From contig NZ_BCZP01000018.1 in the NCBI RefSeq assembly GCF_001598795.1, positions 30,001 to 62,000 of the forward strand: a stretch of 32,000 bases of DNA, read 5' to 3'. This DNA is from Delftia acidovorans NBRC 14950. GTDB taxonomy: Bacteria > Pseudomonadota > Gammaproteobacteria > Burkholderiales > Burkholderiaceae_C. The translations under genes and the position numbers were made by a program. The notes beneath the pieces were generated by a model. That model did not search any database and was not told the DNA's origin. It saw only the letters and a list, made by a program, of their open reading frames with translations. Each line of letters starts with the position of its first letter. Within the stretch, counting starts at the first letter, position 1. This document shows, piece by piece, positions 1,713 to 32,000 of the stretch.

Positions 1713-2891
1713 ATGGTGACGTTGACAGCAAGACATCTTCTGGCGCTGGCGGTGCCCCTGTGCACCTTGCTGCTGGCCGGCTGTTTCTATGTCTGCTGGC
1801 GGCATCTGCGTGCCCGGCGCGAGTTGCGCAGCATGTCCTTCGCCTTCACCGGCTTCAGCCTGGCGCTGCTGCTGCAGATCCTGGAGCGGCCTGCGGCCGT
1901 TCCCGTCAATGCATTGACGACGGCCGCGCTGCAACTGTGCGCGGCCTGGTTCATCACCGAGGCCATGGCCATACGCCAGGGCGTGCGCCCCGATGCACCG
2001 CTGGCGGCCGGCTTTGGCGGCGCGGTGCTGGTGGTGCTGGGCTACTACGCCTGGGCCGTGCCCGATGCCCAGGCGCGCCAGCATGTGCTCAATTTCGGCC
2101 TGGGCCTGCAGCTGGCCCTGCCGCTGTGGCGGCTGCCACGCAGGCATCCCTGCACAGGCTGGGACCGGCTGCTGCTGTGGGTGTTCGTGGTCTTTGCGCT
2201 GAGCTTTTTCGTCCGCACGCTGTGGGTGACGCCGCGTGCTGCTTCGGTATCGGCCAGCGCAGCCGGGGAATGGCTGGGCATTTCTTCCTCGTGGATGGCG
2301 CTGCAGTTGAGCCTGCTGGTGTTCGGCCTGCTGTTTGCCATGCTATTCCTGGCCGCGGCGGTGCGCGACACCGTGCAGGAGCTGCACGAGGAGCGCGACC
2401 GCGATCCGCTGACCGGGCTGCTGAACCGGCGCGCCTTCAAGGAGGCCGTGCAGCGCCGGCTGGCCGAGCAGCCGCAGCTGTCGGCCGCCGTACTGGTGTG
2501 CGACCTGGACCATTTCAAGCGGGTCAACGACGGCTGGGGCCATGCGGCGGGCGACGAGGTGCTGCAGCGCTTTGCGCGCCTGCTGCTGCGCAGCACACGC
2601 CAGCAGGACCTGGTTGCACGCTTTGGCGGGGAGGAGTTCGTGGCCCTGCTGCCGCACGCCGACCCGCTGGCCGCGCAATGGATAACCCGGCGCATCCAGA
2701 CCCAGCTGCGCCTGATGGGCTTCAGCGCGCTGCCCGACGACATACGCATCACGGCCAGCTTTGGCGTGGCCTGGATGGCCCAGGGCCAGACGCTGGAGCA
2801 GGCGCTGGCGCGTGCTGACGCCATGCTCTACGAGGCCAAGCGCGCAGGCCGCGACCGGGTGCGGCTGGTGCCGCAAGAGGAAGAGGCCTAG
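1713..2891 (+). CDS. Membrane-anchored diguanylate cyclase (GGDEF domain)
   Basis: Track ORF 1710..2891(+). The C-terminal domain has the A-site RFGGEEFVALL and an RxxD I-site (RQQD) exactly 5 residues upstream. The N-terminal ~200 aa are hydrophobic and multi-span. The start is ambiguous (TTG 1710, ATG 1713, GTG 1716) after GGGAG at 1705-1709. Confidence 0.9.
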   Translation: MVTLTARHLLALAVPLCTLLLAGCFYVCWRHLRARRELRSMSFAFTGFSLALLLQILERPAAVPVNALTTAALQLCAAWFITEAMAIRQGVRPDAPLAAGFGGAVLVVLGYYAWAVPDAQARQHVLNFGLGLQLALPLWRLPRRHPCTGWDRLLLWVFVVFALSFFVRTLWVTPRAASVSASAAGEWLGISSSWMALQLSLLVFGLLFAMLFLAAAVRDTVQELHEERDRDPLTGLLNRRAFKEAVQRRLAEQPQLSAAVLVCDLDHFKRVNDGWGHAAGDEVLQRFARLLLRSTRQQDLVARFGGEEFVALLPHADPLAAQWITRRIQTQLRLMGFSALPDDIRITASFGVAWMAQGQTLEQALARADAMLYEAKRAGRDRVRLVPQEEEA

Positions 2892-3781
2892 CCAGGGCTT
2901 GGCTTGCCCGGTGTGACCGGCGCCTGCAGCAGGCGTGGGGTGCGGGAAGGGCGTGGCGATGAGCGTGGGGCGCTGGACTCGCGCGGTGCATGTGGCTCAT
3001 GCGGCTCGTGCGGCTTGTGCGACACATGCTGCTCGTGCGACACATGCGGCTCGCGCGGTGCGTCCTGCTCGCGTGGCGCGTGGGCCCTGCGTGGTCCCCG
3101 CGGGCCGCTGGAGCTGCCGGGGCCGCGGGGTTCAGGCGCAGGCCTGGCGGGCCTGGCCGGGCGTTCGGCCACGGCCGGCTGGCGCTGTTCCCAGGCGGGC
3201 AGGGCGGCATGCACCATGGCGGCGCCGTGGGCGTCGTTGGCCGCGTAGTGGCGCTGGGCCAGGCTCAGCTGCGGTGCAGCCCAGTTGGAGGTGGAGATCT
3301 TCTTGGACTTGTGGAAGTTCTGCCCCAGCACCAGGGCCACGGCCGCGCGCACGCCCACCGAGCTGGCATAGCCGTGGCGCTTGAACACGCGGTCCAGGTC
3401 GATCACGTTGTGCAGCGCAACGCCCAGGCGCGCGGGCAGCGCGCTGCGGTCATGGTCCAGGCCGAAACCGGCCTTGCAGATGGACTCGCTGGCCAGTACG
3501 TCGGCCGCAAGCGCGCGTGCCTGCGCATGGTGCAGCTGCAGCAGCCAGGCCTGGTCGCAGGTGGCCAACTGCACCACATGGGGGCCGGTGTCGGTCTGGT
3601 GGGCGTGGAACAGCGGCTTGCTCTCGGTATCGAAACCGAGCACGGGAGCCGCCATCAGCGCAGCGCGTGCGGCCGCGAATTCGGCGTCGGTGGCGGGCAC
3701 GTGGATGCAGCGCTCGGGCAGGGCGGCAAAAGGCGGCAGCAGGCGGCTGTCATCCTTGCTGGGAGCGTGCAGGCGGGGCAT
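2888..3781 (-). CDS. 3'-5' exonuclease, DEDDy (RNase D/WRN-like domain) with a low-complexity C-terminal tail
   Basis: Track ORF 2888..3781(-). Exo motifs are visible: GFDTES (ExoI), GFGLDHD (ExoII) and YAANDAH (ExoIII, Y-x3-D). The last ~100 aa are Pro/His/Arg-rich. No obvious SD precedes the ATG at 3781. Confidence 0.8.
   Translation of the reverse strand: MPRLHAPSKDDSRLLPPFAALPERCIHVPATDAEFAAARAALMAAPVLGFDTESKPLFHAHQTDTGPHVVQLATCDQAWLLQLHHAQARALAADVLASESICKAGFGLDHDRSALPARLGVALHNVIDLDRVFKRHGYASSVGVRAAVALVLGQNFHKSKKISTSNWAAPQLSLAQRHYAANDAHGAAMVHAALPAWEQRQPAVAERPARPARPAPEPRGPGSSSGPRGPRRAHAPREQDAPREPHVSHEQHVSHKPHEPHEPHAPRESSAPRSSPRPSRTPRLLQAPVTPGKPSPG
2989..3087. repeat. Eleven degenerate 9-nt units (consensus CRTGCGGCT) encoding the exonuclease tail
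   Basis: The units read consecutively: catgtggct catgcggct cgtgcggct tgtgcgaca catgctgct cgtgcgaca catgcggct cgcgcggtg cgtcctgct cgcgtggcg cgtgggccc. gtgcgacacatgc recurs exactly at 3017-3029 and 3035-3047 (18-nt period). Confidence 0.6.
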
Positions 3782-3998
3782 GGGAAAAGAGGGGGAAGCC
3801 GAGGCAAGCCGTCAAGTATGCCTGCACTTGCATGCCCCTCAGGCACCGGGTTTTTATCCCCGGTGCGTGTGGACGGAGTTGTGGAAAACTCCGGGTGTAA
3901 CTTGCCGAATCCGCGCCCTGCAAGGCTTTCCACGGAATGCCTAAAAAATCAGCGCAGTGGCGAAAGGGCGTCGAATAAGGGTATTTGCGGATGGCTGC

Positions 3999-5839: not shown

Positions 5840-6988
5840 TCAGAGCGCGCGAGCGATCACTTCCTTCATGATTTCGCTGGTGCCGCCGTAGATGCGCTGC
5901 ACGCGCGCATCGGCGTACATGCGGGTGACCATGTATTCGTTCATGTAGCCATAGCCGCCATGCAGTTGCACGAGTTCGTCGAGCACCCGGCCCTGCGCTT
6001 CCGAGCCCCACAGCTTGGCCATGGAGGCCGTGGCCGTGTCCAGCGTGCCGGCCACCAGTTGCTCCACGCAGCGGTCGATGAAGGCGCGGCCCACGGTGAG
6101 GGTGGTTGCCACCTCGGCGAGCTTGAACCGGGTGTTCTGCATGTCGGCAATGGCCTGGCCGAAGGCGCGGCGCTCGCGCACATAGGCCAGCGTGGCCTCG
6201 TAGGCGCCTTCCATGCAGGCCAGGGCGGCCAGGCCGATGATCAGCCGCTCGTAGGGCAGGTCGCCCATGAGCTGGTAGAAGCCCTGGCCTTCGCGCCCGC
6301 CCAGCAGCGCGTCCTGCGGCACGGTCACGTCATCAAAGAAAAGCTCCGAGGTGTCCTGGGCCTTCATGCCCATCTTGTCGAGCACGCGGCCCACGCGAAA
6401 GCCCGCGCAGTCCTTCGTCTCCACGATGAGGATGGAGGTGCCGCGCGCGCCCTGGGCCGGGTCGGTCTTGCAGACCACGAGGATCAGGCCGGCCAGCAGG
6501 CCGTTGGTGATGAAGGTCTTGCTGCCGTTGATGCGGTAGCGGCCGTCCCTGAGTTCTGCGCGCGTGCGCACGCCCTGCAGGTCCGAGCCCGCGCCGGGCT
6601 CGGTCATGGCGATGGCGCCCACCAGCTCGCCGCGCGCCATGGCGGGCAGGTACTTGCGCTTTTGCGCCTCGGTGCCGTGGTTGAGCAGGTAGTGGGCCAC
6701 GATGGAATGCACGGAGTTGCTCATGCCCGAGAGGGCACGGCGCGCCATCTCCTCGTGGATCACGGCCTCGTGGCGGAAGTCGCCGCCGCCGCCGCCGTAG
6801 TCCTCGGGGATGTCGGTGCACAGCAGGCCCAGCTCGCCGGCGCGGCGCCAGATGGCATGGCCCACGTTGCCGCGCTGGCGTGCGGCCTCGTCCTGCGGCT
6901 GCATTTCGGTTTCCAGAAAGCGCACGGCGGTGGCGCGCAGGCTTTCCAGCTCGGGGGTGCTCCAGGAGCGTGTCAGTTGCAGTGGCAT
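5840..6988 (-). CDS. Acyl-CoA dehydrogenase (LCAD/IVD-type)
   Basis: Track ORF 5840..6988(-), 382 aa. The C-terminal RIYGGTSEIMKEVIARAL has Gly where MCAD-type enzymes carry the catalytic Glu (YEGT), as in long-chain and isovaleryl-CoA dehydrogenases (established knowledge, from memory). Confidence 0.9.
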   Translation of the reverse strand: MPLQLTRSWSTPELESLRATAVRFLETEMQPQDEAARQRGNVGHAIWRRAGELGLLCTDIPEDYGGGGGDFRHEAVIHEEMARRALSGMSNSVHSIVAHYLLNHGTEAQKRKYLPAMARGELVGAIAMTEPGAGSDLQGVRTRAELRDGRYRINGSKTFITNGLLAGLILVVCKTDPAQGARGTSILIVETKDCAGFRVGRVLDKMGMKAQDTSELFFDDVTVPQDALLGGREGQGFYQLMGDLPYERLIIGLAALACMEGAYEATLAYVRERRAFGQAIADMQNTRFKLAEVATTLTVGRAFIDRCVEQLVAGTLDTATASMAKLWGSEAQGRVLDELVQLHGGYGYMNEYMVTRMYADARVQRIYGGTSEIMKEVIARAL

Positions 6989-28045: not shown

Positions 28046-30746
<2,701 letters not shown>

Positions 30747-30813
30747 GCCTGCGCCGCCGGCCCCTTGCCGGGGCTGCGCAGCGGCAGTGCCCCGTCTTCA
30801 CTCCCCTTGCAAT

Positions 30814-32000
30814 ATGGAGCATGCCGGCCAGGGCCGGCATGGAACCACCTTGGCCACTTCGCGCAGTTCCCGCTCTTCCAGCACGCCCGGCACACCCAGC
30901 ACATCCGGCACGCCCCGCAAAAAGGCAGCCGCTGCCGCGCCTGCACCCGTTGATCATGCGCACGAACATGTGCATTCCGCCGACGGCACCTGCTGTGCCC
31001 ATGGGCACGAACATCCACATGACGATGGCGCTGCCCACAGCCACGACCACGACCACGACCACGACCACGAGCACGATCACGATCACGATCACGATCACGA
31101 TCACGGCCATGTGCATGCCGCCGACGGCAGCTGCTGCGGCCATGCGCATGACCAGGGTCCGCGCCACATCTATATCTACTCGCCCGCCGGTGCCGTGCGC
31201 GACAAGGCCGGCTTCAAGCGCGGCGTGCGCCGCCTGGAGGCCATGGGCCATCAGGTGGAGATCGATGCCGATGCACTGAGCAGCCACCAGCGCTTTGCAG
31301 GCGACGACGCCACGCGCCTGGCGGCCATCGAGCGCGCAGCGGCCAGCGGTGCCGACCTGGCGCTGCCCACGCGCGGCGGCTACGGCCTCACGCGCATCCT
31401 GCCGGGCATCAAGTACAAGGCCGTGGCCAAGGCCATCGCAGGCGGCACGCGCTTCGTGGGCCTGAGCGACTTCACGGCGCTGTCGCTGGCCCTGCTGGCC
31501 AGGACCGGCGCCACCACATGGGCCGGCCCGCTGCTGGTGCACGACTTCGGCCGCCCCGACGACGAGGGCGGCGTGGACGACATCATGCTGGACTGCTTCA
31601 ACGACCTGCTCAGCGGCCAGGGCGAGGGCGCGGGCTGGCAGATGCCGAAGATCGGCCTGCGCGAAGACGGCAAGCCTGCCGTCAAGGACTTCTACATCAG
31701 CGGCGGCGCCACGCTGTGGGGCGGCAACCTGGCCGTGCTGGTCTCCCTGCTGGGCACGCCTTACTTCCCGCAGATCAAGGGCGGCATCCTGTTCCTGGAA
31801 GACGTGGGCGAGCATCCCTACCGCGTGGAACGCATGCTGACCCAGCTGCTGCATGCCGGCGTGCTGGCCCAGCAAAAGGCCATCGTGTTCGGCCAGTTCA
31901 GCGAGTTCAAGCTCAGCTCGCATGACAAGGGCTTCAAGCTGCAGACCGTGATCGACTGGCTGCGCAGCCAGGTCAAGTGCCCCGTGCTGCAGGGCCTGCC
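30814..32000 (+). CDS. ldcA: LD-carboxypeptidase (peptidase S66, LdcA/MccF family), 3'-truncated by the window end; maximal ORF includes a His-rich N-terminal region
   Basis: This ORF is not in the supplied track. I hand-translated frame 1 (every 60-nt line start from 30781 on is a codon start) and found no stop from at least 30742 to 32000. The S66 body runs from about 31168: IYIYSPAGAV...GLSDFTAL (nucleophile Ser)...GGILFLEDVGEHPYRVERMLTQL. The only in-frame ATG is at 30814. Alternative starts are TTG 30850, GTG 30970 and GTG 31111, and none has a clear SD. Confidence in the S66 domain is about 0.9; confidence in the 30814 start is about 0.35. Confidence 0.75.
   Translation, partial: MEHAGQGRHGTTLATSRSSRSSSTPGTPSTSGTPRKKAAAAAPAPVDHAHEHVHSADGTCCAHGHEHPHDDGAAHSHDHDHDHDHEHDHDHDHDHDHGHVHAADGSCCGHAHDQGPRHIYIYSPAGAVRDKAGFKRGVRRLEAMGHQVEIDADALSSHQRFAGDDATRLAAIERAAASGADLALPTRGGYGLTRILPGIKYKAVAKAIAGGTRFVGLSDFTALSLALLARTGATTWAGPLLVHDFGRPDDEGGVDDIMLDCFNDLLSGQGEGAGWQMPKIGLREDGKPAVKDFYISGGATLWGGNLAVLVSLLGTPYFPQIKGGILFLEDVGEHPYRVERMLTQLLHAGVLAQQKAIVFGQFSEFKLSSHDKGFKLQTVIDWLRSQVKCPVLQGL
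30820..30841 (+). other. Perfect 9-bp hairpin overlapping codons 3-10 of the longest ldcA reading frame
   Basis: catgccggc (30820-30828), loop cagg, gccggcatg (30833-30841). It lies 74 nt after the tadA stop. No U-tract. Confidence 0.5.
31042..31104. repeat. Hexanucleotide tract (cacgac x4, cacgag, cacgat x5, cac) encoding (HD)4-HE-(HD)5-H
   Basis: Read directly from the sequence. It is flanked by two 54-nt direct repeats (30961-31014 and 31102-31155, 44/54 identical by hand count) that encode HEHVHSADGTCCAHGHEH and HGHVHAADGSCCGHAHDQ. Confidence 0.9.

Follow-up and report, generated by a model that had tools for sequence, protein, structure and literature searches.

A conserved, length-variable His/Cys-rich extension at the N-terminus of LdcA in Delftia and related genera: a putative metal-binding arm behind a candidate split ribosome-binding site

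Introduction

Histidine-rich proteins and segments of related kinds include Hpn and the His stretches of HypB and UreE, and the GroES protein HspA of Helicobacter pylori also carries two Cys-Cys pairs. The His/Cys extension of HspA is lineage-specific and sequesters nickel (PMC7840056). In Escherichia coli SlyD, an FKBP prolyl isomerase, the tail takes up as many as 7 Ni, and its occupancy by nickel has been reported to modulate the E. coli enzyme; between species, the SlyD extension ranges from 2 to 50 residues (PMC7840056). At the level of translation initiation, genes 38 and 25 of phage T4 possess a split ribosome-binding site, in which the Shine-Dalgarno (SD) box and the start codon are 22 and 27 nt apart in the linear sequence and 5 and 11 nt apart once the intervening RNA is folded (PMC3014915). 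Here, we describe a locus of Delftia acidovorans NBRC 14950 with likenesses to both kinds of system, the gene ldcA for LdcA, a murein tetrapeptide LD-carboxypeptidase that serves peptidoglycan recycling in the cytoplasm. The gene lies at the right-hand end of a 32,000-nt stretch of contig NZ_BCZP01000018.1 (positions 30,001 to 62,000; hereafter the window, within which all coordinates are given) and is preceded, in the same reading frame, by codons for a tail rich in His, Cys and Asp.

We hypothesize that the gene encodes an LdcA with a translated N-terminal extension of 106 residues, starting at TTG 30850, and that this extension is a metal-binding arm; taken as a whole, we hold this reading with moderate confidence. 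The kind of tail, known from SlyD and HspA, and the host enzyme have both been described before, and what appears to be new is the combination of tail and enzyme, its conservation across several genera, its in-frame hypervariability and its conserved, hairpin-bridged initiation site. No paper coupling LD-carboxypeptidase or muramoyltetrapeptide carboxypeptidase with the term 'histidine-rich' was found in full-text literature searches.

The host enzyme

On the + strand, frame 1 has no stop codon between 30418 and the window end at 32000; it contains an ATG at 30814, from which residues are numbered throughout. Peptidase_S66 (PF02016; 79.2 bits against a cut-off of 25, E 3.7e-22) begins at residue 119 of this open reading frame (ORF), that is at nt 31168, and is followed C-terminally by Peptidase_S66C (PF17676; 92.8 bits against a cut-off of 23.7, E 3e-26). 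An earlier note on this DNA, made from the letters and a program-made ORF list, had read the frame as open from before 30814 through the window end and as encoding a clear S66 LD-carboxypeptidase from about 31168, and on both points it was correct, the two Pfam domains scoring above their gathering thresholds. It had also remarked that the ORF is missing from the list; the ORF is indeed unlisted, for the trivial reason that the list omits ORFs running off the window end. About 34 C-terminal residues, including the catalytic His, fall past this end, and the part that follows the tail is 311 aa long in full-length orthologues. The catalytic His is found, in a GHV motif, in the full-length orthologue P0001, which is 86% identical, and S218 (GLSDFTA) and E329/E333 (LEDVGE) are invariant in an alignment of 18 diverse orthologues. 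The closest genomic match is D. acidovorans MMO-42 (locus L001), with 94% protein identity.

Among solved structures, those closest to the window protein in sequence are a muramoyltetrapeptide carboxypeptidase from Oxalobacter formigenes (6UUK, E 2.3e-53) and E. coli LdcA (5Z01, E 4.5e-49), and MccF proteins have far weaker PDB sequence scores than LdcA proteins. The AlphaFold2 model of P0001 matches 6UUK with a TM-score of 0.90–0.92 and 5Z01 with 0.88, normalised to the PDB chain. The NCBIfam LdcA equivalog NF008424 is the sole family match of full-length P0001, which at 292.6 bits does not reach the cut-off of 378 bits, and hence the public name is the generic 'LD-carboxypeptidase'. Judged by these comparisons, the domain is a genuine LdcA-type S66 peptidase and the host enzyme an ordinary LdcA. 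With canonical LdcA (E. coli 5Z01, O. formigenes 6UUK and Pseudomonas aeruginosa 1ZRS) it shares the two-domain S66 fold, in which the nucleophile-elbow Ser and the acidic residue are kept; whereas canonical LdcA starts a few residues before strand 1 (about 4–5 in E. coli), the window protein has 106 extra N-terminal residues. An antisense ORF at 30301–31923 was rejected as a GC-rich artefact, since the Pfam and PDB matches sit on the + strand.

Architecture of the tail

Counted from ATG 30814 the extension would have 118 residues, 27 of them His, and counted from TTG 30850 it has 106. Its composition is dominated by a tract of 74 codons (Table 1) with 25 His (15 CAC, 10 CAT), 4 Cys and 18 Asp/Glu. 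A direct repeat of 62 nt (30952–31013 and 31093–31154, 81% identical) corresponds to two HxHVHxADGxCCxHxH modules, and the hexanucleotide tract, with the codons (CAC GAC)x4, CAC GAG and (CAC GAT)x5, encodes (HD)4-HE-(HD)5. The shorter repeat in the linker differs by one 9-nt unit from that of MMO-42. The counts of the earlier note agree well with these figures: it had given about 25 His in 73 residues, direct repeats of 54 nt with 44 identical positions, which are the same feature as the 62-nt repeat, and about 10.5 hexanucleotide units, for which Tandem Repeats Finder gives 11.5 copies. Its observation that third-position G/C (GC3) is lowered also stands, with a GC3 of 0.68 in the tract against 0.86–0.92 for the S66 part and for both genes upstream. 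This drop is no mark of non-coding DNA, because it is largely compositional and follows from His/Asp codon usage: His codons in three neighbouring coding regions are divided into 16 CAC and 16 CAT, and half of the tract repeat uses GAT. When 0.91 Mb of related DNA was scanned in all six frames, no tract of the His/Asp/Cys type came up outside ldcA. The tract is not a chance feature.

Table 1. Features of the ldcA 5' region and tail, with positions in the 32,000-nt window
Feature	Position	Strand	Remark
ATG, start assumed in the earlier note, probably not real	30814..30816	+	no SD upstream
GGAG, Shine-Dalgarno-like box, overlaps G of ATG 30814	30816..30819	+	identical across 47 aligned loci
Hairpin CATGCCGGC-cagg-GCCGGCATG between GGAG and start	30820..30841	+	minimum-free-energy fold; covariation
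TTG, most likely ldcA start	30850..30852	+	TTG/GTG/ATG at equivalent position in Delftia, Comamonas, Acidovorax
Linker, basic, Ser/Thr/Pro/Ala-rich, N-terminal (ATSRSSRSSSTPGTPSTSGTPRKKAAAAAPAPV)	30853..30945	+	ATS(R/K)K motif kept in Comamonas and Delftia
Tandem repeat in linker, period 9/18 nt	30878..30919	+	Tandem Repeats Finder
His/Cys/Asp-rich tract	30946..31167	+	25 His, 4 Cys, 74 codons
Distal module (HAHEHVHSADGTCCAHGHEH)	30952..31013	+	direct repeat of proximal module
Internal GTG	30970..30972	+	annotated start of 359-aa product, D. acidovorans SPH-1; P0129 begins MHSADGTCC
Hexanucleotide (His-Asp)n tract	31041..31109	+	Tandem Repeats Finder: unit CCACGA, 11.5 copies
Proximal conserved module (..HGHVHAADGSCCGHAHDQGPRH)	31093..31167	+	abuts S66 strand 1
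Internal GTG	31111..31113	+	annotated start of 330-aa Delftia products; P0121 begins MHAADGSCCGH, on 63 contigs
S66 LD-carboxypeptidase domains	31168..32000	+	Pfam PF02016 and PF17676; cut by window end

In structure predictions the tail is disordered, with a predicted local distance difference test score (pLDDT) below 50 for residues 1–81 of P0001, which has a long tail, and for residues 1–8 of the short-tailed orthologue P0100, and the S66 fold is modelled confidently in both proteins (mean pLDDT of P0100, 92.8). This suggests that the tail forms a flexible arm in the apo state.

Distribution, selection and length variation

Among the 120 best homologues, 119 could be scored, and in nearly all of them a His-rich tail stands directly before IYIYSPS, with Cys residues present as well in most. 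In the alignment of 18 orthologues H101, C108 and H112 are invariant and H110 is nearly so; the proximal 20 residues follow the pattern H-x6-C-x-H-x-H-x5-H in the window, with x3 to x5 before the last His in other genera. A survey of DNA from 80 species places tails ending in C-x-H-x-H-GP-x-H before LdcA strand 1 in Delftia, Comamonas, Acidovorax, Paracidovorax, Simplicispira and Giesbergeria. Tail length varies overall from about 15 to 106 residues across genera: long tails of 44–106 residues, which begin with a basic M-ATS(R/K)K and contain a Cys-Cys motif, are found in Delftia and Comamonas, and short tails of about 17–34 residues (for instance M-HDHDHDHSQCHHDHGPKH) in Acidovorax, Paracidovorax, Simplicispira and Giesbergeria. 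The enzymes of Polaromonas, Rhodoferax, Limnohabitans and Ramlibacter are tail-less (MKKH- or MAH-IY...), and across the wider S66 family, sampled as 150 cluster representatives at 50% identity, only close relatives have a His-rich tail. On this distribution, the tail is a derived character of one sub-lineage, which we take to belong to the family Comamonadaceae.

Two proteins depart from the common layout. In a metagenomic orthologue of 492 aa (P0031) the distal His tract is swapped for about 130 residues of Ala/Lys/Pro-rich repeats resembling histone H1 or AlgP, and the proximal HVHSADGSCCGHDH core is retained. In locus L068, which belongs to a tail-less lineage, the C-terminus is extended to WGHMHGHAHHHH (about 6922–6980). 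When a metal site shared between the two termini was looked for, a C-terminal W-G-H-x-H proved to be present in LdcA orthologues, those of tail-less genera included. The C-terminal His run of L068 is a hint that LdcA may have gained a His-rich terminus on more than one occasion.

In 14 loci of Delftia and Comamonas, the ratio of non-synonymous to synonymous differences (pN/pS) over the 19 codons that precede IYIY is 0.335 in frame as against 1.66 and 1.30 in the other two frames; for the first 38 codons of S66 it is 0.216. Six Delftia alleles (the window, MMO-42 and four metagenome contigs found via the DNA of the proximal module) were compared by the length between two DNA anchors, without use of gene calls; their six GGAG-to-anchor distances are 238, 244, 265, 292, 298 and 304 nt, all differences being multiples of 3, and the indels between the window and MMO-42 measure 9 and 18 nt. 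Because of this conservation, distribution and in-frame selection, and because the frame is kept at hypervariable length, the tail is very probably translated and conserved as part of the protein.

The same alleles bear on the proposal of the earlier note that the hexanucleotide tract might be a contingency locus, toggling translation of ldcA by slippage. The tract is certainly the most length-variable part of the gene, and its repeat number is polymorphic between strains, as at phase-variable loci: the HD units after 'AAHS' number 1 (SPH-1 and L084), 2 (L082), 3 (P0127), 5 (L083) and 9–10 in the window, the longest seen. However, phase variation of this kind calls for a frame-shifting unit or a repeat in the promoter, and here the tract sits within the coding region and has a 6-nt unit, which cannot shift the frame, so that slippage alters the length of the tail and not the expression state. 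With zero frameshifted alleles among the six retrieved by their DNA anchors, we consider such a switch extremely improbable.

Translation start

The start of the tail is marked by a composite element of a GGAG box, a hairpin, a spacer and a start codon. In the window, GGAG and TTG 30850 are 30 nt apart in the linear sequence and 8 nt apart once the hairpin is folded, and the folded distance is 6–8 nt across loci; the start triplet is TTG, GTG or ATG in relatives and is followed by codons for A-T-S-(R/K). Hence, GGAG would present the ribosome with TTG 30850, the 22-nt hairpin bringing the box within 8 nt of it. The complete element occurs in 52 of the 75 loci in which the gene was located, as against 3.8% of random 420-nt segments from the same loci, and the start is TTG in 46 of the 52. 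Its stem comprises 6–9 bp across loci (L001–L077). Most of the genera with a tail have the element, and the tail-less ones lack it. When hairpins were searched for without requiring a start codon, 47 of 49 perfect ones had an in-frame start 5–10 nt downstream and none of the 49 had an out-of-frame start only.

When 47 distinct sequences were aligned with MAFFT, 95.7% of the stem cells were paired, compared with 76.7% in shuffles and 17–44% with the partner slid; the 95.7% is inflated by the selection of these 47 for the hairpin. Stronger evidence comes from the double changes, with five of the seven stem pairs changing on both sides (54 cells against 16 expected), and from the 3.8% background. 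The folding z-score of the 71-nt leader, in its GC-rich context, is not significant (z = -0.38), and the case for the hairpin is therefore one of covariation and not of energy. A scan of 30700–31250 against Rfam gave no family for the hairpin, only chance-level miRNA/sRNA matches below threshold. No sigma-70-like promoter was called in a promoter scan, and a terminator scan gave no + strand terminator between the upstream gene and ldcA; the hairpin itself was considered as an intrinsic terminator and excluded, as it received no terminator call on the + strand and its stem is not followed by a T-run. In the fold predicted for the leader, CUCC (30801–30804) pairs with the GGAG box and might thereby act as an anti-SD sequence in competition with the ribosome.

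The ATG at 30814, with which the region described in the earlier note begins, is probably not the start. It has no SD sequence upstream, the triplet aligned with it is ACG in several Comamonas loci, and in the Comamonas loci L009–L012 the ATG is out of frame; these four loci also have an in-frame stop three codons upstream of the start and so permit no earlier one. The conservation of 'ATGGAG' is explained by the nucleotide element to which the GGAG belongs. Comparative evidence makes TTG 30850 the likely start of ldcA.

Public records disagree on the start, both among the Delftia proteins (cluster P0121–P0134) and among those of Comamonas (P0135–P0148), and many NCBI entries drop the tail at an internal GTG; the Delftia products, which form a cluster at 90% identity (P0121–P0134), are given as 311, 330, 359, 362, 375, 377 or 405 aa. 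In agreement with such entries (P0121, on 63 contigs; P0129, SPH-1), the earlier note had considered that LdcA might start at GTG 31111 or 30970, the His-coding DNA upstream being an untranslated or decaying microsatellite, and both the lower GC3 of the tract and the start of E. coli LdcA just 4–5 residues or so before strand 1 would fit this view. The GC3 drop is, however, accounted for by His/Asp codon choice, and a decaying microsatellite would be difficult to reconcile with a frame kept over six length variants, a pN/pS of 0.34 in frame and at least 1.30 out of frame, His/Cys tails of differing sequence maintained across genera, an SD-hairpin-start element conserved at the 5' end of the tail and in frame in 47 of 49 cases, or the ORFs of the short-tail genera, which offer no alternative start. 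An internal start is thus very improbable, and the conserved tail, the in-frame selection and the conserved initiation site all favour TTG 30850.

Possible functions of the tail

The tail is composed of alternating His-x-His, Asp/Glu and Cys-Cys pairs ('GHVH...DG-CC-G-H-x-H'), as in characterised metal-binding tails. The E. coli SlyD tail reads AHGHVHGAHDHHHDHDHDGCCGGHGHDHGHEH in the K-12 genome (also given as AHGHVHGAHDHHHDHDHDGCCGGHGHDHGHEHGGEGCCGG...), and a Smith-Waterman comparison with the window tail, unfiltered for composition, scores 131, whereas composition-preserving shuffles score 74.8 +/- 11.5 and 0 of 2000 reach 131. BLASTP of the tail against the SlyD tail gave no alignment, owing to composition filtering. 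The similarity shows a shared pattern and not homology or common descent. As in tails of the SlyD/HspA type, the tract is terminal and rich in His, Cys and carboxylates, is predicted to be disordered, and varies in length between species.

The earlier note had proposed a real N-terminal metal-binding extension. The extension itself is well supported by the conserved tails, purifying selection, in-frame indels and conserved initiation site; metal binding stays an inference. The extension consists of a short basic Ser/Thr/Pro/Ala linker followed by a flexible His/Cys/Asp-rich tract, whose hypervariable distal part grows and shrinks in frame by module duplication and by slippage of CACGAY hexanucleotides. 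We propose that the tail would act as a multi-site arm for divalent metals (Zn, Ni or Co, the Cys-Cys pairs also allowing Cu(I)) of the kind seen at the C-termini of SlyD and HspA. The conserved core next to strand 1 may form a defined metal site, to which the variable distal part would add capacity, and the arm may serve as a metal buffer or store carried by an abundant housekeeping enzyme of the cytoplasm, or else render the activity or stability of LdcA metal-responsive. By analogy with the characterised tails, functionally relevant binding of metal by the tail in the cell is reasonably likely. A role in regulating LdcA, or in tying cell-wall recycling to metal homeostasis, is doubtful.

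Several observations weigh against a metal-binding arm. To our knowledge, LdcA as a Ser-His-Glu peptidase of family S66 has no known metal requirement. The absence of the tail from sister genera makes it dispensable for LdcA catalysis, and, given the great variability of the distal tract, selection on much of it may act on composition only, or be absent. The tail is covered by no Pfam or NCBIfam model and by no PDB relative; its sole PDB sequence match is a low-complexity one to P. aeruginosa PA4063 (E 0.019), which its PDB entries name only as an uncharacterised DUF2796 protein and which we presume to be a zinc-binding periplasmic protein. Finally, the 32-kb window and the region downstream in MMO-42 yielded neither metal-homeostasis genes nor any Zur- or NikR-like context.

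The tail might instead be translated and yet be a largely neutral, low-complexity expansion at a free terminus of a repeat-prone, GC-rich genome, with no role in metal binding. Genes of the window do contain other in-frame tandem repeats, with periods of 9, 12, 18 and 21, and predicted disorder, wide variation in tail length and sequence, sister genera without a tail and the lack of metal-related genes nearby would all be expected of such an expansion. Neutrality is less easily squared with domain-adjacent Cys and His residues that are invariant over family-level divergence, with purifying selection on the proximal module, with a bias that always runs to His, Cys and Asp and to no other composition, and with the independent C-terminal His run in L068; we regard it as rather unlikely. 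A function other than metal binding is also conceivable, the tail serving as a pH-sensitive or, through Cys-Cys, redox-sensitive arm, as a docking site for a partner, or as a tether to membrane or nucleic acid via the basic ATSRKK. The conservation of the basic N-terminal motif in Comamonas and Delftia, the replacement of the distal His tract by Ala/Lys/Pro-rich residues in P0031 and the potential of Cys-Cys pairs to form redox switches could be read in this way, but short-tail genera keep the His/Cys core without the basic segment, and the combination of His-x-His and Cys-Cys fits characterised metal-binding tails (PMC7840056), which leaves a non-metal function quite improbable.

A metal-binding arm thus remains the reading that we favour. 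A bolder extension of it, which we think unlikely and put forward as speculation, is that LdcA of the Acidovorax-Comamonas-Delftia group has been recruited as a moonlighting metal handler: the core would make recycling responsive to Zn or Ni, or would deliver or store metal, the (His-Asp)n tract would tune capacity by strain through slippage in frame, and synthesis would be gated by the hairpin-bridged SD site and its TTG start.

Gene neighbourhood and other repeats

The 32-kb window is ordinary chromosome, with genes for branched-chain amino-acid transport, fatty-acid oxidation, a MalT/LuxR-type regulator, a molybdopterin oxidoreductase and a U32 peptidase, as well as a periplasmic binding protein and a TadA/alpha-beta-hydrolase fusion. 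The last of these is encoded directly upstream of ldcA (29256–30746, + strand) and joins a TadA domain of tRNA adenosine deaminase type (217.6 bits with NCBIfam) to a haloalkane-dehalogenase-like alpha/beta-hydrolase; the order tadA-ldcA is retained in related loci. Downstream of ldcA in MMO-42 lie genes of the fatty-acid hydroxylase and penicillin-amidase families and a gene for a solute-binding protein.

Repeats of other composition are found at the ends of two further window proteins. The ORF at 28046–29341 (+ strand) contains, at 28202–28263, 6.9 copies of the 9-nt repeat GCTGCACCT with 98% matches, which constitute another in-frame N-terminal repeat: the product, a periplasmic binding protein of the Leu/Ile/Val type, has (AAP)n close to its N-terminus. 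On the - strand, the 3'-5' exonuclease (DNA_pol_A_exo1) encoded at 2888–3811 ends in a low-complexity tail (..PREPHVSHEQHVSHKPHEPHEPHAPRE..) specified by a 9/18-nt tandem repeat at 2978–3058, in which His is present and Cys absent.

Significance and comparison with known systems

For annotation, the comparative evidence fixes the likely start of ldcA and indicates that the tail belongs to the protein, and it does so for a tail that is kept in several genera, including environmental and opportunistic bacteria. Should the tail bind metal, LdcA would join SlyD and HspA among the few housekeeping proteins with a second role in buffering or sensing metal, and its alleles would provide a natural tail-length series for studying how such tails evolve by in-frame slippage. 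The speculative moonlighting role, if true, would amount to a previously unrecognised link from cell-wall turnover to metal homeostasis. As a practical consequence, proteins of this kind would be expected to co-purify on Ni/Co affinity resins. The SD-hairpin-TTG element is a chromosomal candidate for a split ribosome-binding site of the phage T4 type.

With T4 genes 38 and 25 the element has in common a distant SD box, an intervening hairpin that restores a working spacing, and conservation within a clade together with absence outside it (PMC3014915). It differs in that ldcA is a chromosomal bacterial gene with a TTG start. By this analogy, the element resembles a split SD site, in which the hairpin could enhance initiation or instead limit or regulate it.

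With SlyD, LdcA shares a terminal, disordered His/Cys/Asp-rich tract on a cytoplasmic housekeeping enzyme, and GHVH, (HD)n and DG-CC-G-H-x-H occur in both tails. However, the tail of LdcA is N-terminal and that of SlyD C-terminal, the host is an S66 serine peptidase in one case and an FKBP prolyl isomerase in the other, and the LdcA tail has no known link to hydrogenase maturation. The likeness to HspA lies in a lineage-specific His/Cys-rich extension on a conserved housekeeping protein; host protein, terminus and organism are different, and whereas gastric Helicobacter has a clear demand for Ni through urease, none is evident for Delftia and Comamonas.

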